This document shows positions 6,965 through 62,583 of a stretch of DNA of 64,000 nt, in pieces (within the stretch, counting starts at the first letter, position 1; every line of letters starts with the position of its first letter). The position numbers and the translations under genes are program-made. This stretch comes from an uncultured Candidatus Saccharibacteria bacterium (GTDB lineage Bacteria > Patescibacteriota > Minisyncoccia > Phycocordibacterales > UBA9973), in contig CAZUZL010000005.1 in the NCBI GenBank assembly GCA_964625065.1, positions 2,072-66,071 on the forward strand. The letters run 5' to 3'. Under the pieces are notes generated by a model that ran no database searches, was not told where the DNA came from, and saw nothing but the letters and a program-made list of their open reading frames with translations.

Positions 6965-7050
6965 GGAGACGTCGCATAGCGGTCTAGTGCACTACCTTGG
7001 AAAGGTGGCAGGGTGTTAAAGCCCTCGGAAGTTCAAATCTTCTCGTCTCC
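6965..7050 (+). tRNA. tRNA-Ser (anticodon GGA), class II with long variable arm
   Basis: Hand fold: acceptor GGAGACG/CGTCTCC, D-arm containing GG, anticodon stem CTACC/GGTGG with loop TTGGAAA, long variable arm with a GGG/CCC stem, T-arm GGAAG-TTCAAAT-CTTCT. CCA is not encoded. Confidence 0.8.
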
Positions 7051-7053
7051 TCA
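7035..7053 (+). repeat. 19-bp direct repeat, copy 1 (3' end of tRNA-Ser); copy 2 at 7228-7246
   Basis: aaatcttctcgtctcctca occurs at 7035-7053 and again at 7228-7246. Confidence 0.7.
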
Positions 7054-7227
7054 CACTAAAGTTAAACCTGACTTCGGTCAGGTATTTTAGTGTGAGGAGA
7101 CACAGCAAGTAAACTGCTTTACTTGCGTGAGAGATTTGAACGCCGGAAGATAAAATTTTTAGCAGAAAATTTTCTGAGGCGGTGCCCAGCCCGAGCCGAG
7201 TGGTCCGACGAGGCGAGAGGCGAGGGA

Positions 7228-7246
7228 AAATCTTCTCGTCTCCTCA
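7228..7246 (+). repeat. 19-bp direct repeat, copy 2 (duplicate of the tRNA-Ser 3' end)
   Basis: Exact match to 7035-7053, separated by a roughly 175-bp hairpin-rich segment. Confidence 0.7.
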
Positions 7247-7268: not shown

Positions 7269-7664
7269 ATGGAAGAATTAAAAAATTTAGCCGACAGATC
7301 AATAGAAAGCTTAAAAACTATGCAACACCCCATTGTGCGTGTTTGTGGTCCATTAACTACTGGCCCACATAGTTACGACGAAAATATTAAAAGGTTTGCA
7401 AAAGCCGAAGCTGTTCTGACTGAAAAAGGTTACAATGTTTTTTATCTAGATGACACAGAAAACGAAATACAGGGCAAAAATTATTCTTGGCCCGATATAC
7501 AACAATATTTCCATGAACCAATATTGCGCTCAGGTCTAATAGATATGGCTTTCTTTTTACCAGACTGGCAGGCATCTACAGGGGCAACTTGGGAACATAA
7601 CATAATAGAAAAAGAAACAAATATAAAAATAGAATATATAGAAGAAAGTTGGTTAAACGACTAA
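7269..7664 (+). CDS. DUF4406-like protein (nucleoside 2-deoxyribosyltransferase-like fold), tentative
   Basis: IVRVCGPLTTGPH...FAKAEAVLTEKGYNVF...IDMAFFLPDWQASTGATWEH resembles the DUF4406 pattern; the assignment is uncertain. Confidence 0.45.
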   Translation: MEELKNLADRSIESLKTMQHPIVRVCGPLTTGPHSYDENIKRFAKAEAVLTEKGYNVFYLDDTENEIQGKNYSWPDIQQYFHEPILRSGLIDMAFFLPDWQASTGATWEHNIIEKETNIKIEYIEESWLND

Positions 7665-19287: not shown

Positions 19288-19333
19288 AACAAAACTCCCG
19301 TAATGCGGGAGTTTTGTTTTTATAGATTCTTTG

Positions 19334-19404
19334 CTGCGAGGCTAGGACTCGAACCTAGATACACGGTTCCAGAAACCGTAGTCCTACCATTAGACGATCT
19401 CGCA
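19334..19404 (-). tRNA. tRNA-Gln (anticodon CTG)
   Basis: Reverse complement reads TGCGAGATCGTCTAATGGTAGGACTACGGTTTCTGGAACCGTGTATCTAGGTTCGAGTCCTAGCCTCGCA-G. U1-A72 and G73 are typical for Gln; anticodon loop TTCTGGA; T-arm CTAGG-TTCGAGT-CCTAG. There is one A/C mismatch in the acceptor stem. Confidence 0.75.
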
Positions 19405-19407
19405 ATA

Positions 19408-19662
19408 CTATTTTTTATTATACAATAGTTTTTGTTTTAATACCTCTCTTCCATAACCAGTCTTATAAAACCTTTCAGACTGTCTTGCTAGATCATATGT
19501 TATGTATGCTTCATAAAAAATTAAATCAAACGGGCGGTTTTTACTGGTATATATACCGCCAATTCCGTCATTATGTTCCTTAAACCTTCTTTTAAGATTA
19601 TCAGTACTACCTACATATAAACGGTTATTTTTCTTACTTTTTAAAACATACGTATAAAACAT
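19408..19662 (-). CDS. GIY-YIG nuclease family protein (YhbQ-like, 84 aa)
   Basis: YVLKS...LYVGSTDNLKRRFKEHN...YEAY...R.SERFYKTGYGRE matches the GIY-YIG fold pattern. Confidence 0.8.
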   Translation of the reverse strand: MFYTYVLKSKKNNRLYVGSTDNLKRRFKEHNDGIGGIYTSKNRPFDLIFYEAYITYDLARQSERFYKTGYGREVLKQKLLYNKK

Positions 19663-19775
19663 AAATTATGTCCCTGCCTCGTCGGCAGGTCGCCGTAGAG
19701 GCGACTACCATTAGACGATCAGGCAATAAGTCTTATTATACATAATTTATAAGGATTTTCAAGGTACTTAATTTT

Positions 19776-40976: not shown

Positions 40977-41585
40977 TTATTTTTCAGAAAGTTTTTTCAA
41001 TATTTTTGGTATTTGTTTAAAATCTTTCAGTAGTATTGCACGCATACCACCGTTATATAGTGCAGCAGCAGGGTGGTATAGGGGTAGAAAATGTGTGGTT
41101 TTAAGTTCTGTAATTACTGAAGTATTTTCTGTGCCTTTATATTTTTCAGTATCTATTATTTTACCGTGTGCATCAGATATACTAAGTTCCGGAAAAAAGC
41201 TGTTCAATGCATGTCTACCTAAAAACACAATTACGTCTGGTTTAATGTAATTTAGTTCGGCAACTAACCATGCACGGCATTGTTGTTTTTCGGTGGGTGT
41301 TGGGTCGCGGTTCTCGGGTGGGCGGTATTTAACTGTGTTGGTTATGTATACATCGGCCCGGTCCATTTTTATAGACTGCAACATTTCTGCTAAAAACTTG
41401 CCCGCAGCACCGACAAAAGGCACACCTGTTTCGTCTTCTTTTTTACCTGGGGCTTCGCCTATAAAAACCACGCGTGCCTTTGGGTTACCGTTACCAAACA
41501 CAGCTTGTTTAGCTGTGTTTTTTAGTTCGCATTCGCAAACGCTGTCGTAATATGTGTGTAGTTTATGTAGTGTAGTAAACTGCAT
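40977..41585 (-). CDS. Uracil-DNA glycosylase, family 4
   Basis: GEAPG motif (VVFIGEAPGKKEDETGVPFVGAAGKFL) and C-terminal HPAAALYN. Confidence 0.85.
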   Translation of the reverse strand: MQFTTLHKLHTYYDSVCECELKNTAKQAVFGNGNPKARVVFIGEAPGKKEDETGVPFVGAAGKFLAEMLQSIKMDRADVYITNTVKYRPPENRDPTPTEKQQCRAWLVAELNYIKPDVIVFLGRHALNSFFPELSISDAHGKIIDTEKYKGTENTSVITELKTTHFLPLYHPAAALYNGGMRAILLKDFKQIPKILKKLSEK

Positions 41586-54668: not shown

Positions 54669-55361
54669 ATGGGAACAAGAAAATTTCCACTTTGCGATAA
54701 TGAATATTTTCATTTATATAATCGTGGAAATAGCAAACAAAAGATATTTTTAGACGGTCAAGATTATGAGCATTTTATAAAGTGCATATTTGTTTGCAAT
54801 TCATATAAAAAGTATAAATTTAGAGACGATATTGTTGATCTCGGCATTGATGCTTTTGAGTTCGATAGAGCAGAGACAATCGTCTCTATAGGCGCATGGG
54901 TTTTAATGCCAAATCACTTTCATATCTACATTATAACGGCACATCAGTCAGATCGGTGGAAAGATTTAGAACGTAATAGAATTTCTGAATTTATGCGTAA
55001 AGTCTTAACTGCGTATAGTTTATATTTTAATAAAAAATATGAAAGAACCGGCGGTTTATTTGAAGGTGTATTTAAATCAATACACATTGGAAATGATAAT
55101 CAAGCAAAATATCTATTTTCTTATATACACTTAAATCCAATAAAGCTTATTCAAAAAGACTGGAAGGAAGTAGGAACAATAGATGTTAAAAAAGCACTAA
55201 AATTCTTAGAAGGTTATAAATGGAGTAGTTACATGGACTATAAGGGTATTATAAGGAAAGAAAATGCTATTTTAAACACAGAGTATTTTCCAAAATATTT
55301 TTCTGATATTAAAGATTTTGATAGGGAAATATTAAATTGGTTAGAATATAAAGAATTATAA
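54669..55361 (+). CDS. REP-associated tyrosine transposase (RAYT; IS200/IS605-like Y1 HUH transposase)
   Basis: HUH motif LMPNHFHIYI; catalytic Tyr region YLFSYIHLNPIK; YNRGN...IF; C-terminal WSSY. Flanked on both sides by the REP palindrome. Confidence 0.75.
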   Translation: MGTRKFPLCDNEYFHLYNRGNSKQKIFLDGQDYEHFIKCIFVCNSYKKYKFRDDIVDLGIDAFEFDRAETIVSIGAWVLMPNHFHIYIITAHQSDRWKDLERNRISEFMRKVLTAYSLYFNKKYERTGGLFEGVFKSIHIGNDNQAKYLFSYIHLNPIKLIQKDWKEVGTIDVKKALKFLEGYKWSSYMDYKGIIRKENAILNTEYFPKYFSDIKDFDREILNWLEYKEL

Positions 55362-55391
55362 ATTTCCCACCAGTCTGACTGGTGGGAAATT
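55361..55391. repeat. REP-like palindrome, copy 2 (aatttcccaccagtctgactggtgggaaatt)
   Basis: 31-bp palindrome between the RAYT and HNH genes. Confidence 0.85.
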
Positions 55392-55441
55392 GAAAAATAA
55401 AAATTGCTGCATATTTTAAAATAATATGATATGCTGCGACT

Positions 55442-56137
55442 GTGAAGAAAATTTTAGACGATATTCTAAGTTATAGAGAAATGTGTGATTCTGAGAAAAC
55501 CCAAACTATGCAACGTGGGATGAATTTTCGCATGAAACCAACATATTCTGTTATTTTGATGTCCCAAAGATCAAACGCCCCTTACTCAGATAAGGTTTAT
55601 AAAGATGGAGTAACTATTGAATACGAAGGTCATGATGTTTCAAGAAAATACTCAGAAAATCCAAAAGAACAAGATCAGCCTGATAAATTACCAAGCGGTA
55701 CTATAACACAAAATGGTTATTTTATAAAAGCTATTAATGAATATAAAGAAAATAAAAGCAAACCAGAATTAGTAAAAGTTTATGAAAAAGTATTTTCAGG
55801 GGTGTGGTCATTAAAAGGATATTTTGATTTGATAGACTATAAAATCATTCATGATGGAAAGAGAAATGTTTTTCGTTATATTTTAAAATTGTCTGACAGA
55901 AAAGAAAATTCTAATATGGGAGATATTAACATTGGACACACTAGATTAATTCCATCAGAGGTTAAAAGAGAAGTTTGGAAAAGGGATCAAGGAAAATGTG
56001 TTTTATGTGGTGATTCTAAAAACCTCCACTTCGATCATGACTTACCTTTTTCGAAGGGTGGTACAAGTCTTTCTTCAAATAATGTTAAATTGCTTTGCAT
56101 GAAGCATAATTTACAAAAATCGGATAATATCCAATAA
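55442..56137 (+). CDS. HNH endonuclease with an unassigned ~170-aa N-terminal domain (possibly a PUA/SRA-like modified-DNA reader; candidate modification-dependent restriction enzyme)
   Basis: C-terminal HNH motif CVLCGDSKNLHFDHDLPFSKGGTSLSSNNVKLLCMKHNLQKSD. The N-terminal domain was not recognised with certainty. Confidence 0.65.
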   Translation: MKKILDDILSYREMCDSEKTQTMQRGMNFRMKPTYSVILMSQRSNAPYSDKVYKDGVTIEYEGHDVSRKYSENPKEQDQPDKLPSGTITQNGYFIKAINEYKENKSKPELVKVYEKVFSGVWSLKGYFDLIDYKIIHDGKRNVFRYILKLSDRKENSNMGDINIGHTRLIPSEVKREVWKRDQGKCVLCGDSKNLHFDHDLPFSKGGTSLSSNNVKLLCMKHNLQKSDNIQ

Positions 56138-58632: not shown

Positions 58633-59226
58633 TTATTTATCTACTTTTTTGCGACGTTGGAAAATGAATCTGGTGTCTAAAGGAAAAATATTTTTGGTTT
58701 GCAAATCACCAGCATCAAGTGTCAGAATATTTTCATAGTTGTAGAGAGTAAAGAAGTTGTTGTCATAATTCATGGCAATTACCATCCACTCTTTTTCTTT
58801 TTGATCCAAGTAATTTATACGAAGGCAAGGTCCAATAAGCGGGTGGCAAATATCTAATCCAAATCTTTTAGCCTTAGAAATAATACTTTCGTATCTTACT
58901 TCATTCTTAAAACCAAGGTCGGCAGGTGAAATATTAACTAGCTCAATACTTTCTTCTACCATATTCTGGATGTCGGCATCACAATCGTCGATTATGTAGT
59001 TAGCTAAACCTCCCACTTCAGCAAGCGAGCAATTTCTTTTCAAAAGGTCAATCAAGCCTTCTGCATCTTTTTGAGGTCCAACGGAAATTCTTCTCCAGAT
59101 AGGGAAGGTAATCTCATTGTTTTCGATAATTGTTTTACCTGATAGAAAAAGTTTGACCCCATCCATTCCTCCGAGTTTGTTTACGATGGCCTCTGCTTGG
59201 CCAAAAGTCAGTTGTCCGTATTTCAT
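58633..59226 (-). CDS. Hypothetical protein (197 aa)
   Basis: ORF only; no motif recognised. Confidence 0.4.
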   Translation of the reverse strand: MKYGQLTFGQAEAIVNKLGGMDGVKLFLSGKTIIENNEITFPIWRRISVGPQKDAEGLIDLLKRNCSLAEVGGLANYIIDDCDADIQNMVEESIELVNISPADLGFKNEVRYESIISKAKRFGLDICHPLIGPCLRINYLDQKEKEWMVIAMNYDNNFFTLYNYENILTLDAGDLQTKNIFPLDTRFIFQRRKKVDK

Positions 59227-59464
59227 GATTAAAAATAATGATTAAAAGACTGATAGTCTTTTTGTTGCCGCTGTCCGCGGTAGGAACTAGACTTCATTAT
59301 AACAGTCATAGCCAGGAAACATCACATTGTAATGCCTTTTGGCTATGACAGTTATGTAAAATATTTAAAGAACGTACATTTTTATTATAGCATTTTTAAT
59401 ATAAAAAGTCAAATAAAAATACCCTTATTTTGTAAGGGTATTTTTATGGAACTTTTACTGTTTT

Positions 59465-60304
59465 TTATGATGCTGATGAATTGATAGTAAACATTGCATC
59501 TAAGTATTTCCAGAATGTTGCGTCGTCTGAAAGTTTTGCAACACATTCACTGGCTACTGCTTCCATGCGGGCTTTAGGGTGTAAACCATCTAGTGGGTAG
59601 TGGCGGTAAACCCATGCAACTTTGTCCCCATAGGCGTCTTTTATTTGGTGCATAGTTGTGTGGAAACGTTGGCAGTATGGGCAGTCTGAATCAGAATATT
59701 CCACTATTATTATTGGTGCGTTAGGGCTACCTACAATATGGTCGCCCGGCAGTAGTACTGTTGTTGCAGTGGGTTTCTGTTCTGCTTCTAGTGGTATGGT
59801 TTTACCTGCCAAGCCTGCGTCTATAACTGTTTTTATTGTTTCTATAGGCAAAGACCCAACGATTTGTATTTGTTGGTTAGTGCTTGCAACCATAATTATA
59901 GAAGTTGGTGTGCCTTGTATACCCAGTGGTGCTGCAAGGGCAATCTGGTCTTTTACTGTTTGTTCTGCGTCAGCAGCATCCATACATGCTTCAAATTTGT
60001 TTGCATCAATGCCCATGTTTGTAGCAAAAAGTTCTATAGCACTGTATTCTTTACCATTAGTTGGTTTGTTGTTTGTTTTATCCGGTGCAAAAACAAATAT
60101 CAAGGCAAGACCTATAATAACAGCTGCAGTAACTACAGCTTGGGGCAAACCGAAACCTGTGTTAGTTGTTTGGTTTGCTGTAGCACCCTGTACTGTTTTT
60201 TCAGTATTTTCAGGTGCTATGTTTGTGTCGTTTTGTGTGTTGTGTTCATTTTCCATGTGTGTATTATACCGCGTAGTAGAACTTTTTGGAAGCAAAAAAT
60301 TCAC
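59465..60304 (-). CDS. DsbA-family thiol:disulfide oxidoreductase (thioredoxin fold, CPYC) with an N-terminal membrane anchor and linker
   Basis: SDSDCPYCQRFH active site; a TM segment near the N-terminus; terminator at 59421-59451 (aaaaatacccttattttgtaagggtattttt). Confidence 0.75.
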   Translation of the reverse strand: MNFLLPKSSTTRYNTHMENEHNTQNDTNIAPENTEKTVQGATANQTTNTGFGLPQAVVTAAVIIGLALIFVFAPDKTNNKPTNGKEYSAIELFATNMGIDANKFEACMDAADAEQTVKDQIALAAPLGIQGTPTSIIMVASTNQQIQIVGSLPIETIKTVIDAGLAGKTIPLEAEQKPTATTVLLPGDHIVGSPNAPIIIVEYSDSDCPYCQRFHTTMHQIKDAYGDKVAWVYRHYPLDGLHPKARMEAVASECVAKLSDDATFWKYLDAMFTINSSAS

Positions 60305-60381
60305 TACCCGGCAGCCCCCTTAATTTGTTGCATTAATCTTATTTTATGCTATTATATTCCTATTGCCACTAATGGTAATAA

Positions 60382-60456
60382 GCCGCTTTAGCTCAGTTGG
60401 TAGAGCAATACTTTTGTAAAGTATGGGTCCTCGGTTCAAGTCCGAGAAGCGGCTCA
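60382..60456 (+). tRNA. tRNA-Thr (anticodon TGT)
   Basis: GCCGCTT acceptor, GCTC-AGTTGGTA-GAGC D-arm, ATACT-TTTGTAA-AGTAT anticodon arm, CTCGG-TTCAAGT-CCGAG T-arm, AAGCGGC-T. Confidence 0.9.
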
Positions 60457-60640
60457 AAATCTAGATATCTTAAATAGTTATAAATACATAACTAAAGTAT
60501 GTGGTTCCTGATCAAGTCTGAGAAGGGACTCAAATAATATATATATATTAAATAGTTATAAATACATAACTAAAGTATGTGGTTTCGGTTAAGTCCGAGA
60601 AGCGGCTCCAAGTATAAACTTCTTAAACATTTATAAATAC
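60457..60640 (+). repeat. Two tandem ~70-bp units, each containing a degenerate copy of the tRNA-Thr 3' half (pseudo-att sites)
   Basis: Unit 1 at 60472-60539 and unit 2 at 60547-60614 both begin taaatagttataaatacataactaaagtatgtgg... Their 3' parts mimic the tRNA T-arm and acceptor: ttcctgatcaagtctgagaagggactca and tttcggttaagtccgagaagcggctcca. Confidence 0.7.
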
Positions 60641-60696
60641 ATTAGAACGCGATAAATAAATAAAAGCCCCTTACGGGGCTTTTATTTATTTATCGC
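60640..60696. terminator. Long perfect palindrome / bidirectional terminator (cgcgataaataaataaaagccccttacggggcttttatttatttatcgcg)
   Basis: Roughly 52-bp perfect inverted repeat with a GC core flanked by A/T runs. Confidence 0.6.
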
Positions 60697-61099
60697 GTTC
60701 CTCTTCTTTTATTTTTGCCTTTAGTTGTTTTATTTTATATTTGTATTCTACAACACTACGCCAGAAGAATGAATTTTGGTGTTCCTCGGGGGTAATAGGT
60801 TTTTTCGAGAAGAACGCATATACTCGTGGCATGTTAGTTTCGAAAAACTTTGCTATACGTGCACTTGTGCGTATTCTAAGTTCAGAAATGGTTATAAATG
60901 CACGATGTAGTCCACGACTTATACGATATGCGATAAATTTTAATGTTTGTGTAACAACCCTTTTTTCATGTAATTGTGTTTTATGTATAGTGTCTACTGT
61001 TATAACACCAGTGCGTAGTAAATACGCGCGGTAGCAAGTTGTAACATACAACGCGACAGCAGATAGTATAAATATTACGATTAAAAAAGTTGTACCCAT
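60686..61099 (-). CDS. Hypothetical membrane protein (137 aa)
   Basis: ORF with an N-terminal TM segment, downstream of tsf. Confidence 0.35.
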   Translation of the reverse strand: MGTTFLIVIFILSAVALYVTTCYRAYLLRTGVITVDTIHKTQLHEKRVVTQTLKFIAYRISRGLHRAFITISELRIRTSARIAKFFETNMPRVYAFFSKKPITPEEHQNSFFWRSVVEYKYKIKQLKAKIKEEERDK

Positions 61100-61108
61100 A
61101 TCTATTTA

Positions 61109-61882
61109 TTATACTGTAAATTGAGTAAATGAAACAATACTTGCACCAGCTTCCTTAAGTAGTTGACCGATAGTTTTTGAAGGGTCTTTGATAAAGTTTT
61201 GTTCTACCAAAGTGTATTCCTTAAAATATGTGTCTAGTTTACCTTGAAGTATTTTTGCTTTCATTTCAGCTGGCTTGTCAGATTCGTTAACTTCAGCAGT
61301 AAATAGTTCTGTAACTTTTACTTTGTCGTCTTCACTGATGTCGGCTGTTGTTGTAAAACGTGGGTACATAGCTGTAACATGCATTGCTATGTCGCGTGCT
61401 AGGTCTTTGTTACCACCTTCTAGTACAACTACAGCGGCGTTTTTACCATTGTGGTTGTATGAACCAACTGTAGAACCTGCAAGTACCACAGTTGTACCAA
61501 GTTGGATGTTTTCGCCAATCTTTTGTACTAATGGGTCTATCATTTCTTTTGCTTTCGCTGTTACTGCATCTGTGCCTTCAGTTAACGCAAGGTCGGTTAG
61601 TGTGTTAACTAATGCTACGAAGTCGTCGTTTTTAGCAACGAAGTCTGTTTCGCATAGTAGTGTTATAACAGCTGTTTTGTCAGCGCCGTCTTTAACGTTT
61701 ATCAAACCTGCGCCTAATGTTCGGTCTGATTTTTTAGCAGCACTTGCACTTGATTGTTTGCGTAGCAATATCAAGGCAGTTTCCATGTCGCCTTCACTTT
61801 CTTCTAAAGCTTTTTTACATTGCATTACTGATACACCTGTTGTATCGCGTAATTCTTTTACCATTTCAGTTGTGATTTTCAT
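61109..61882 (-). CDS. tsf: Elongation factor Ts
   Basis: N-terminal UBA-like region (LRDTTGVSVMQCKKALEESEGDMETAL) and the EF-Ts dimerisation domain (LLCETDFVAKN). Confidence 0.9.
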   Translation of the reverse strand: MKITTEMVKELRDTTGVSVMQCKKALEESEGDMETALILLRKQSSASAAKKSDRTLGAGLINVKDGADKTAVITLLCETDFVAKNDDFVALVNTLTDLALTEGTDAVTAKAKEMIDPLVQKIGENIQLGTTVVLAGSTVGSYNHNGKNAAVVVLEGGNKDLARDIAMHVTAMYPRFTTTADISEDDKVKVTELFTAEVNESDKPAEMKAKILQGKLDTYFKEYTLVEQNFIKDPSKTIGQLLKEAGASIVSFTQFTV

Positions 61883-61911
61883 AAGAACAATTTAAATTAA
61901 TGTTTTTAAAA

Positions 61912-62583
61912 TTATTGGTTTTTGTAAGCTTTTTTAAGCTCGTCAATAAAGAATGAAATACTAGATACAGACCCATCGTTAGCAACAATAGGGAATGTAG
62001 CAACGCGGTTGTCGCAGTCTGTGTTCATAAGTGCAATAACTGGTATGTTCATTTTTTGGCATTCAGTAACTGCAATGTGTTCGCGTTTAGCGTCAACAAC
62101 TATAACCGCAGCCGGCATAGCTGTCATTGTTATAAGACCTGAAAAGTTTGTTTCCATATCAGCTATTTCACGGTCGATAAGTAAACGTTCTTTCTTAGTG
62201 TATTTTTCAAGTTCACCACTGTCGCGGTCAGCTTTTAGTTGTATTAAGCGGGCGATACGTTTTTTAATTTCAGAAAAGTTTGTTAACACACCACCTACCC
62301 AACGTTCAGTTACAGAAAGGGTACTAGTGTCGGTTGCAGCATCTAATACTGCTTTTTTGGCTTCAGGTTTTACCCCGACCCAAAGTATTTGTTTGCCTTT
62401 TGAACCAAGGTCTTTCAAAAATGTTTTTGCATTTTCTAGTTGAACTTCAGTTTGTGTAAGGTCGATAATATCAACACGGTTTTTGGTGCCGTATATAAAT
62501 TTTGATGCAGAAGGGTGGCGACGAGTTTTTGAATACCCGAAATGCGCACCTTTTTCGAACATCGTGTCAATAAGGTTAGACAT
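61912..62583 (-). CDS. rpsB: 30S ribosomal protein S2
   Basis: GAHFGYSKTRRHPS...ILWVGVK...ERWVGGVLTNF...VIVVDAKREHIAVTECQKMNIPVIAL. Confidence 0.95.
   Translation of the reverse strand: MSNLIDTMFEKGAHFGYSKTRRHPSASKFIYGTKNRVDIIDLTQTEVQLENAKTFLKDLGSKGKQILWVGVKPEAKKAVLDAATDTSTLSVTERWVGGVLTNFSEIKKRIARLIQLKADRDSGELEKYTKKERLLIDREIADMETNFSGLITMTAMPAAVIVVDAKREHIAVTECQKMNIPVIALMNTDCDNRVATFPIVANDGSVSSISFFIDELKKAYKNQ

Follow-up and report, generated by a model that had tools for sequence, protein, structure and literature searches.

The 64,000-nucleotide stretch of DNA analysed here, referred to below as the window, is a piece of bacterial chromosome with a GC content of 33-42% that carries, among other genes, secDF, a prfB-type release factor, ftsEX, a sigma-70 factor, rpsB and tsf, and the genome records nearest to it come from Patescibacteria assembled from metagenomes, under the labels 'Candidatus Nomurabacteria bacterium' or 'Minisyncoccia bacterium'. 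Our subject is a tRNA-Thr(UGU) gene together with the tandem array of tRNA fragments that follows it, both of them situated inside a 429-nt intergenic region, with a DsbA-like gene on one side and an open reading frame (ORF) of 137 aa, orf137, on the other, the plus-strand tRNA gene converging on the minus-strand orf137. tRNA genes are classic entry points for foreign DNA, but in Patescibacteria, the small-genome bacteria to which the window belongs, little has been charted of mobile elements or of the sites at which they attach. The features of the locus are the following, with L-numbers denoting contigs or lineages of relatives:

59465-60256, minus strand: DsbA-like gene, flanking the intergenic region
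60382-60456, plus strand: intact tRNA-Thr(UGU) gene, with the body at 60382-60454, the discriminator T at 60454 and then CA (ARAGORN, Rfam)
60457-60470, plus strand: spacer Sa, AAATCTAGATATCT, identical to the 14-mer between units 1' and 2' of L045 and 1 nt off in L049 and L047
60471-60508, plus strand: 38-nt 5' segment of unit 1, TAAATAGTTATAAATACATAACTAAAGTATGTGGTTCC (nhmmer match; repeat families)
60509-60532, plus strand: H1 of unit 1, a decayed copy of the T arm and acceptor 3' strand, TGATCAAGTCTGAGAAGGGACTCA, ending in CA (aligned to the tRNA)
60533-60548, plus strand: spacer Sb, AATAATATATATATAT (read from the sequence)
60549-60586, plus strand: 38-nt 5' segment of unit 2, with 1 difference from that of unit 1 (nhmmer; repeat family, 94% over 49 nt)
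60587-60610, plus strand: H2 of unit 2, a copy of the T arm and acceptor 3' strand, GGTTAAGTCCGAGAAGCGGCTCCA, with a T loop lacking C56 and ending in CCA
60611-60623, plus strand: spacer Sc, AGTATAAACTTCT, resembling the post-tRNA spacer of L045, AAGAATAAACGTCT
60624-60644, plus strand: truncated third 5' segment, TAAACATTTATAAATACATTA, matching the full copies at 17 of 21 nt (repeat search, blastn-short)
60645-60700, no strand assigned: perfect palindrome of 56 nt in total, with 26-nt arms at 60645-60670 and 60675-60700 and a 4-nt loop (repeat search)
60686-61099, minus strand: orf137, the convergent 137-aa ORF that ends the rpsB-tsf-orf137 operon (ORF list)

The tRNA gene is intact, as a preliminary description of this DNA had it: ARAGORN reports tRNA-Thr(tgt) at 60382-60455 and the Rfam tRNA model gives 70.4 bits over 60382-60454. 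The gene ends ...GGCT-CA, with one C of the CCA absent, and its body is identical in the relatives L010, L005 and L045. On the far side of the array, orf137 has no Pfam or PHROG match and is kept in relatives at 85-91% nucleotide identity.

Downstream of the tRNA gene lie two units of 76-78 bp and a truncated third copy, followed by the palindrome. Each unit consists of an AT-rich spacer of 13-16 nt, a 38-nt segment and a 24-nt copy of the T arm and acceptor 3' strand, the full copies without their spacers spanning 60471-60532 and 60549-60610. Tandem Repeats Finder reports a period of 78 with 2.7 copies and 81% matches over 60436-60642, and in a second repeat search the copies line up at offsets of 78 and 75 bp. 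The two tandem units that the preliminary description had recognised are therefore real, and the truncated third copy had escaped it; nhmmer finds the match of this last copy non-significant (E = 8.2). The first ~21 nt of the 38-nt segment (as a pattern, AGTTATAAATACATAACTAAAGTATGTGGTT) are unlike both the tRNA and the local flank, and the segment contains a 7-6-7 palindrome. In unit 1 this palindrome reads TAGTTAT-AAATAC-ATAACTA, and from AATAC onward the segment copies, with divergence, the anticodon arm and variable loop of the tRNA. The same architecture is present in L045, L049 and L047.

The similarity of the units to the tRNA stands up well to formal alignment, a comparison that the preliminary description had proposed against random similarity. 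Namely, the global alignments of the two units to the tRNA score 19 and 28, the shuffled sequences averaging 2.2 with a maximum of 14, and none of 2000 shuffles reaches the units. The T arm and the acceptor strand had been recognised earlier as copied, and rightly so, but the similarity reaches further, from the 3' end back to the 5' strand of the anticodon stem (AATAC), and the units carry about 45 nt of the tRNA. In particular, where the tRNA reads AATAC-TTTTGTA-AAGTATG-GGTCCTCGGTTCAAGTCCGAGAAGCGGCTCA, the unit reads AATAC-ATAACTA-AAGTATGTGGTT(C/T)C..., with 4 of the 7 positions of the anticodon loop different. In unit 1 two nucleotides of the T stem are deleted and there are further changes, the T loop of unit 2 lacks C56, and the last 18 nt of the tRNA-Thr body are repeated exactly within H2, at 60591-60608. 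At E values up to 10, the Rfam tRNA covariance model reports neither unit. What is more, the terminal unit does not differ from the tRNA evenly along its length: 8 differences fall in the 32 alignment columns to the left of the T loop and none in the 20 columns to the right (Fisher p = 0.017); perfect identity is confined to the 20 nt from the T loop onward, and a diverged similarity runs back from there to the anticodon stem.

The remainder of the unit has a different character. The spacer together with the first 12 nt of the unit is no more similar to tRNA positions 1-26 than shuffled sequences are (p = 0.36-0.89 over seven segments), its similarity to the ancestral flank is not significant, and the outgroup and unit-free genomes have nothing like the 5' segment downstream of their tRNA. 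A whole-tRNA duplicate with a decayed 5' half was ruled out by the shuffle tests, in which no residual 5' similarity was seen, and a derivation of the 5' segment from the ancestral flank is not supported, the similarity being non-significant. Each unit repeats the tRNA sequence from the anticodon stem through to the 3' end, after ~35 nt that resemble neither the tRNA 5' part nor the ancestral flank.

One could imagine that the array is purely local in origin, replication slippage having duplicated the tRNA gene in tandem, either entire or as its 3' part with the flank, and the 5' portions of the extra copies having decayed. The period of 76-78 bp is indeed near the length of a tRNA, the locus bears signs of template switching in that the palindrome extension described below mirrors coding sequence, and E. 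coli tyrT shows tRNA-3'-end tandem repeats without mobile elements. We nevertheless find this origin improbable: the spacer and the first 12 nt give the null results just cited, both against the tRNA and against the ancestral flank, the outgroup and unit-free genomes are devoid of anything resembling the 5' segment, and the clustering of the differences is unlike uniform decay.

Evidence on the history of the array comes from the orthologous locus in relatives, recovered via the proteins of the flanking genes in ~25 contigs of seven or eight related lineages. Among these the copy number is 0, 1 or 2 units:

0 units: L010, L039, L040, L042, L043, L051, L012, L050, L059
1 unit: L004-L008, L049, L047
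2 units: the window, L045

In the unit-free L010, L040 and L042 the tRNA with its CCA is followed by AAAATACAGTAAAATAAATAAAAGCCCC and then by the terminator. Five independent assemblies, L004-L008, carry one unit and a 9-nt stump of the next, and L049 has a single chimeric unit, with an H1-like start, an intact T loop and a CCA, followed by the same stump. L045, which L046 matches in part, has two units and no stump. In L047, a member of the L010 group, the tRNA is followed by Sa, one unit, a second terminator, 3.65 kb of DNA with 30% GC and, finally, the usual terminator. In L011 and L054-L058 the tRNA is gone altogether, unrelated DNA meeting the usual flank exactly at the CTCCA of the tRNA 3' end, and in L059, whose orf137 protein is identical to that of the L011 type, the tRNA is still present. 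In the more distant L009, L014 and L015 the orientation of the tRNA relative to tsf-orf137 is opposite; units are absent from L014 and L015, and the contig of L009 stops within the tRNA.

Nucleotide identities of tsf, rpsB and orf137 arrange the lineages as ((window, L010/L039/L047 group), L004-L008, L045), L011, L012. The unit-free state is ancestral, being found in the outgroups L012, L050 and L059. The window, L004/5 and L045 have in common an inserted T in GTGG, a TTCC stretch, the deletion of C56 in H2 and the TCCTG.TCAAGT signature of H1, the last of these being common to the H1 of the window, unit 1' of L045 and the unit of L049. With such derived features shared, the units predate the split of these lineages, and the unit-free L010-type genomes, which are closest to the window, must therefore have lost them, L047 keeping one.

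The tRNA gene encodes CCA in the unit-free relatives L010 and L039 and in L005, and it is CA-only in the unit-bearing window, L045, L049 and L047, as well as in the unit-free outgroup L012. The terminator-proximal fragment, on the other hand, retains CCA in all unit-bearing relatives but L047. H2 is identical in L005 and L045, and in L045 it is followed, after the CCA, by AAAATAAAGATAAATAAATAAAAGCCCC, the tRNA itself being followed by AAAATACAGTAAAATAAAT... in L010 and by ATACACAGATAAATAAAT... in L039. We interpret H2 as the displaced original 3' end of the tRNA, with its ancestral CCA and, in L045, its ancestral flank. Since the flank of H2 in L045 is the post-tRNA flank of the unit-free genomes, recombination between the tRNA 3' half and H2 would restore the empty allele precisely.

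The spacers and the variants within units point to exchange in the same manner. Spacer Sa stands directly after the tRNA in the window, L049 and L047, and after unit 1' in L045. Position 5 of the unit, which is the one variable position of the 38-mer, is T in both units of the window and A in both units of L045, a pattern of concerted evolution within genomes. Taken together, the occurrence of 0, 1 and 2 copies, the chimera, the shuffled spacers and the variants shared within a genome indicate that one 76-78-bp unit has been subject to unequal recombination and gene conversion. For the same reasons, we do not follow the preliminary description in reading the two copies as repeated integration.

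Could these alleles be products of assembly, that is, of a repeat-induced mis-join in a metagenome-assembled genome? The same-strain Logan contigs L001 and L003 (SRR13208906) both break inside the array, without covering the junctions from Sa through unit 1 to Sb. Yet L003 reproduces the tRNA part, L001 reproduces unit 2, Sc, unit 3 and the palindrome exactly, every junction contains unique spacer sequence, the one-unit form occurs in the five independent assemblies L004-L008 and the unit-free form in at least six, and the two-unit form is found in an independent JGI assembly (L045) that the Logan contig L046 partially matches. An artefact is thus hardly credible to us.

Our best explanation, which we hold with slightly more confidence than doubt, is that the array is a cargo-less, copy-number-variable tandem repeat of 76-78 bp in the 3' trailer of the tRNA-Thr(UGU) transcription unit, and that it represents an unstable recombination scar. 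It would probably be best described as an array of displaced tRNA 3' fragments at a recombination hot spot, and not as a mobile element with cargo. As for its beginning, an outside block joined to resident sequence within a tRNA 3' half is known as a remnant of recombination into a tRNA gene (PMC4383910, PMC9897764), and the presence of such a junction here is a weak indication that recombination into the 3' half of this tRNA seeded the array.

On this explanation, a single recombination event into the tRNA 3' half would have imported foreign DNA, be it by site-specific integration or by a tRNA-anchored import. The imported DNA would have regenerated the tRNA and pushed its original 3' end downstream as an attR-like scar, and nearly all of it would later have been lost. 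From then on, the direct repeats of the tRNA 3' half could drive unequal homologous recombination and gene conversion, an exchange between the tRNA 3' half and the terminal copy giving the unit-free allele and misaligned exchanges adding units. In the same error-prone, hairpin-rich context, templated snap-back synthesis from the coding right arm may have extended the palindrome. Finally, the array would presumably be co-transcribed with the tRNA, because no terminator precedes the palindrome, and removed in 3' processing.

Several observations weigh against this explanation. The seeding event was not observed, and the searches brought up neither an integrase nor an attP-bearing element nor a source of the ~35-nt foreign part; the only cargo seen, the 3.65 kb of L047, lies distal to the unit and not between the tRNA and the unit; the copy numbers derive from short-read metagenome assemblies; and the 38-mer is 97% identical where decay would be expected of a neutral scar, so that gene conversion plus constraint, or a very recent spread, would be called for.

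The searches for an integration partner were as follows. No integrase, and no Phage_integrase or recombinase Pfam match, is found in the variant loci of L047 and L011 or among ~35 window ORFs scanned; apart from 40977-41585 (202 aa), these ~35 take in all ORFs of at least 110 aa that fall between 200 and 500 aa. Nor is there cargo between the tRNA and any fragment in the ~25 contigs, where the intervals measure 13-16 nt. Viral contigs contain no exact match to a 24-mer of the unit, unit 2 has no blastn match below E = 0.05 in the phage and plasmid collections, and the 3' 18-mer of the tRNA is matched solely by a single high-GC phage tRNA array and by two coding regions. A 20-nt match to the palindrome in one AT-rich phage contig was judged to be chance, as the match stops after 24 nt and no tRNA is nearby. 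The integrase and matching attP that the preliminary description had suggested looking for are thus absent from the window ORFs scanned, the variant loci and the viral, phage and plasmid collections; its other suggestion, a search of related genomes for an element at tRNA-Thr, did bring out the foreign DNA of L047, but that DNA lies beyond the unit and has no tRNA fragment at its far end.

How close, then, does the array come to a genomic island? In the Islander scheme, an intact tRNA gene with a co-oriented 3' fragment downstream marks recombination into the gene, with an integrase gene between the two (one per member in tandems) and a length of at least 2 kb (PMC4383910). Like the islands and prophages that tyrosine integrases place in tRNA genes, as Islander and TIGER define them (PMC4383910, PMC9897764), our locus has an intact tRNA and co-oriented 3' fragments reaching the tRNA 3' end, the outermost fragment is followed by the original flank (L045) and the site is a strain-variable hot spot; the homology reaches back, in diverged form, to the anticodon arm. 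In contrast to them, it has no integrase, its copies are separated by 13-16 bp instead of at least 2 kb and have no cargo between them, the anticodon loop as putative overlap is non-identical, and the whole is a homogenised tandem repeat of strain-variable copy number. The attachment-site footprint claimed earlier is accordingly borne out in its co-oriented 3' fragments, displaced 3' end and hot-spot behaviour, but not in the integrase, the intervening cargo or the identity of the anticodon loop, which differs at 4 of 7 positions. We would not file the array as an island or as a tandem of islands, yet it plausibly descends from such an event.

It could still be that two related tyrosine-integrase elements each left an attR-type fragment here and that their bodies were later deleted. 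The configuration and orientation of the fragments fit islands in tRNA genes (PMC4383910), the start of the homology at the anticodon arm fits the anticodon-centred class of attachment sites, CA is the end of both the present tRNA and the inner fragment, and the ancestral CCA that of the outermost one, as if each event had imported a CA-type end, the lineage-specific variants present in both units could reflect a local variant of the element, and att-flanked prophages do exist in Patescibacteria (bioRxiv 10.1101/2024.03.08.584096). Serial integration of this kind is quite unlikely in our opinion, however, as it needs at least two independent deletions that each left the same 13-16 nt plus 38 nt, and the spacers are homologous to one another. 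An overlap must match, and here the anticodon-loop region differs; the ~25 contigs hold neither integrase nor cargo between copies, and the viral, phage and plasmid collections hold no element with the unit. The chimera, the permuted spacers and the 0/1/2 polymorphism are more simply accounted for by unequal exchange, as in the recombination-scar explanation that we prefer.

The conservation of the 38-mer deserves separate consideration. Over six full units of four lineages, mean identity is 97% for the 38-nt 5' segment, 72% for the spacers and 83% for the distal tRNA-like part. Between the inner units of the window and L045, 1 of 38 positions of the 38-mer and 6 of the 24 positions of H1 are changed (Fisher p = 0.011), and the four-fold degenerate sites of tsf, rpsB and orf137 differ by 14-20% between unit-bearing lineages. 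At the four-fold rate, a pair of 62-nt terminal units would have 2 differences or fewer with a probability of ~3e-3 to 1e-4. Gene conversion accounts for identity within a genome, not across lineages. This conservation is as yet unexplained, and it may leave room for a function.

What might that function be? A selected module is conceivable in the form of a stable small RNA (sRNA) from the trailer, as with E. coli rtT or 3'ETS-leuZ, of a protein or recombinase site (the 7-6-7 palindrome), or of a decoy or landing pad diverting recombinases that target tRNA genes. The contrasts in conservation just given speak for it, as does the lesser conservation of the truncated third copy (17/21). The array lies within the tRNA transcription unit, upstream of its only terminator, and tRNA trailers can be functional RNAs (PMC8166272; rttR, bioRxiv 10.1101/2024.07.17.603846). 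On the other side, many close relatives live without units, which are hence dispensable. The palindrome TAGTTAT-N6-ATAACTA has an invariant inner 6 bp, but its sole variable base sits in the outermost pair and breaks that pair of the hairpin, so that there is no covariation. Single-unit folds are marginal against shuffles, the z value being about -2 for the units of the window and -0.4 for that of L005, and Rfam searches of 59000-62000 at E values up to 10 return no known RNA family for the units. The palindrome occurs nowhere else in the 64 kb, and in-genome gene conversion can mimic constraint. On balance, we regard a selected module as rather unlikely, though it is the main rival to the recombination scar. 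A promoter inside the unit was also considered and set aside, there being merely a weak minus-strand match that depends on the non-conserved spacer.

One more specific form of the idea is that the 38-mer and the tRNA-like 3' part together make up a selected, clade-specific module, either a landing pad that catches foreign DNA beside the tRNA or a trailer sRNA with a mimic of the tRNA 3' half, a proposal that we consider unlikely. In the landing-pad version, the 7-6-7 palindrome could be the candidate core. The copy number of the module would then be tuned by unequal recombination. If true, such a landing pad would spare the essential single-copy tRNA-Thr(UGU) from insertions. The 38-mer, unexpectedly conserved as it is, offers a tangible candidate site for a recombinase or for RNA processing in an uncultured lineage.

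The palindrome at the end of the array was described earlier as a perfect palindrome of 52 bp capping the array; it is perfect, but larger, at 56 nt, and it does not cap the array, being a pre-existing element with arms of 17-18 bp in all relatives and of 26 bp in the window lineage only. With a fold energy of -41.8 kcal/mol (z = -12) it is the sole terminator-like site that a terminator scan finds in 60200-60800, and its right arm includes the orf137 stop codon and the last four codons (E-R-D-K), this arm being constrained by the coding end of orf137. It is the bidirectional intrinsic terminator, serving the tRNA unit on the plus strand and the rpsB-tsf-orf137 operon on the minus strand. In a metagenome scan with the terminator pattern, nine matches were obtained, all of them unrelated.

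The left arm of the window lineage has 8-9 extra bases (GAACGCGAT) that exactly mirror the coding right arm, sit at the truncation point of the third unit and are identical in the same-strain Logan contig L001. We infer only that a templated snap-back copy, which also deleted the rest of unit 3, would explain the extension. The correction of quasipalindromes by intrastrand template switching is an established mutational mechanism, and the gain of 8-9 nt mirroring the right arm is what such a templated event would produce, with the difference that here it is read from a comparison of alleles alone, no intermediate having been observed.

Recombination at this locus extends beyond the array. The insert of L047 (4990-8640, Logan SRR33541911) is strain-specific, with 30% GC as against 37% in the core, and has its own terminator directly after the tRNA-like fragment. 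It encodes proteins of 650 aa and 56 aa and a 417-aa membrane protein, none of which has a Pfam, PHROG or PADLOC match or a homologue in the window, and no tRNA fragment is found at its far junction. In the L011 lineage, at 92% amino-acid identity in EF-Ts and 87% nucleotide identity in tsf, ~350 nt of GC-richer non-coding DNA with inverted repeats (L011 5210-5550, present also in L054-L058) replaces tRNA-Thr and dsbA beside the shared terminator and is followed by a fragment of a ResIII/DEAD helicase; the non-coding stretch has no known Rfam family. Finally, the dsbA side (59465-60256) is 75-77% identical between lineages, compared with 93-97% on the tsf/rpsB side (61109-62583), so that the tRNA and terminator mark a recombination boundary between a conserved and a fast-changing block. 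The insert of L047, the CTCCA breakpoint of the L011 type and the divergence on the dsbA side show the locus to be a hot spot.

Among known systems, the closest structural analogue is the E. coli tyrT-tyrV distal repeat (rttR/rtT RNA, tpr), where in NC_000913.3 we find three copies spaced by 178 bp, the last of them overlapping the 3' 19 nt of tyrV. The two have in common a tandem repeat right after a tRNA, within its transcription unit, in which each unit includes a tRNA 3' end. The differences are that the E. coli units measure 178 bp and hold the 3'-terminal 19 nt of tRNA-Tyr, and those described here measure 76-78 bp, hold ~45 nt of tRNA and have no small ORF; that no sequence or Rfam similarity connects the two (59000-62000, E up to 10); and that copy number here varies among close relatives. 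As in variable-number tandem repeats (VNTRs) under unequal crossing-over and gene conversion, we see head-to-tail units, 0-2.3 copies, chimeras, permuted spacers and in-genome sharing of variants, but unlike in VNTRs the first copy is the 3' part of an essential gene, to which the repeat is anchored, and one segment is far better conserved than the rest. With the 3'ETS-leuZ sRNA sponge (PMC8166272) the array shares its site, namely the 3' external transcribed spacer of a tRNA before the terminator; what sets it apart is that many close relatives lack it.

Repetitive elements of the REP/RAYT or MITE type, or an operator, were also considered for the 38-mer and rejected, as the copies of its palindrome in the 64 kb are confined to the array. 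No further copy of the 38-mer exists in the window or in any fetched locus, so the array differs from dispersed elements of this type, and the nearby ORF resembling Y1_Tnp is below the Pfam cutoff. This ORF gives a weak match to an IS200-like Y1 transposase, at 18 bits against a cutoff of 23, and adjoins the gene of an HNH endonuclease, for which models of type II restriction enzymes give matches as well. The two (54669-56137) are 4-5 kb away from the array, and no link to the repeat was found.

The allelic series at this one tRNA runs from unit-free through one-unit, two-unit and chimeric forms to a unit with cargo and to replacement of the tRNA, and it shows displaced tRNA fragments becoming an unstable tandem repeat that reshapes the 3' flank of the gene. 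A practical warning also follows from it: stacked tRNA fragments need not mean stacked integrations, and such repeats break short-read assemblies at tRNA genes.

Two further tRNA genes of the window have partial copies nearby. The last 18 nt of tRNA-Ser(GGA), AATCTTCTCGTCTCCTCA, are repeated exactly 176 nt downstream, at 7228-7245 (region 6965-7245), directly preceding the start of the ORF 7269-7664, so that the genome has a second tRNA whose 3' end is duplicated at short range. Between the two copies, in DNA with no Rfam match, lie a GC-rich stretch, a minus-strand motif resembling a T arm and, in inverted orientation, 16 nt of the tRNA 3' end. At tRNA-Gln(CUG), a 16-nt copy of the 5' part, GATCGTCTAATGGTAG, lies ~300 nt upstream of the gene (19333-19730, minus strand), and the gene and its copy flank a small GIY-YIG-like ORF (MFYTYVLKSKKNNRLYVGSTDNLKRRFKEHNDG...). 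This site looks like an insertion of the homing-endonuclease type beside a tRNA, with partial duplication of the tRNA.

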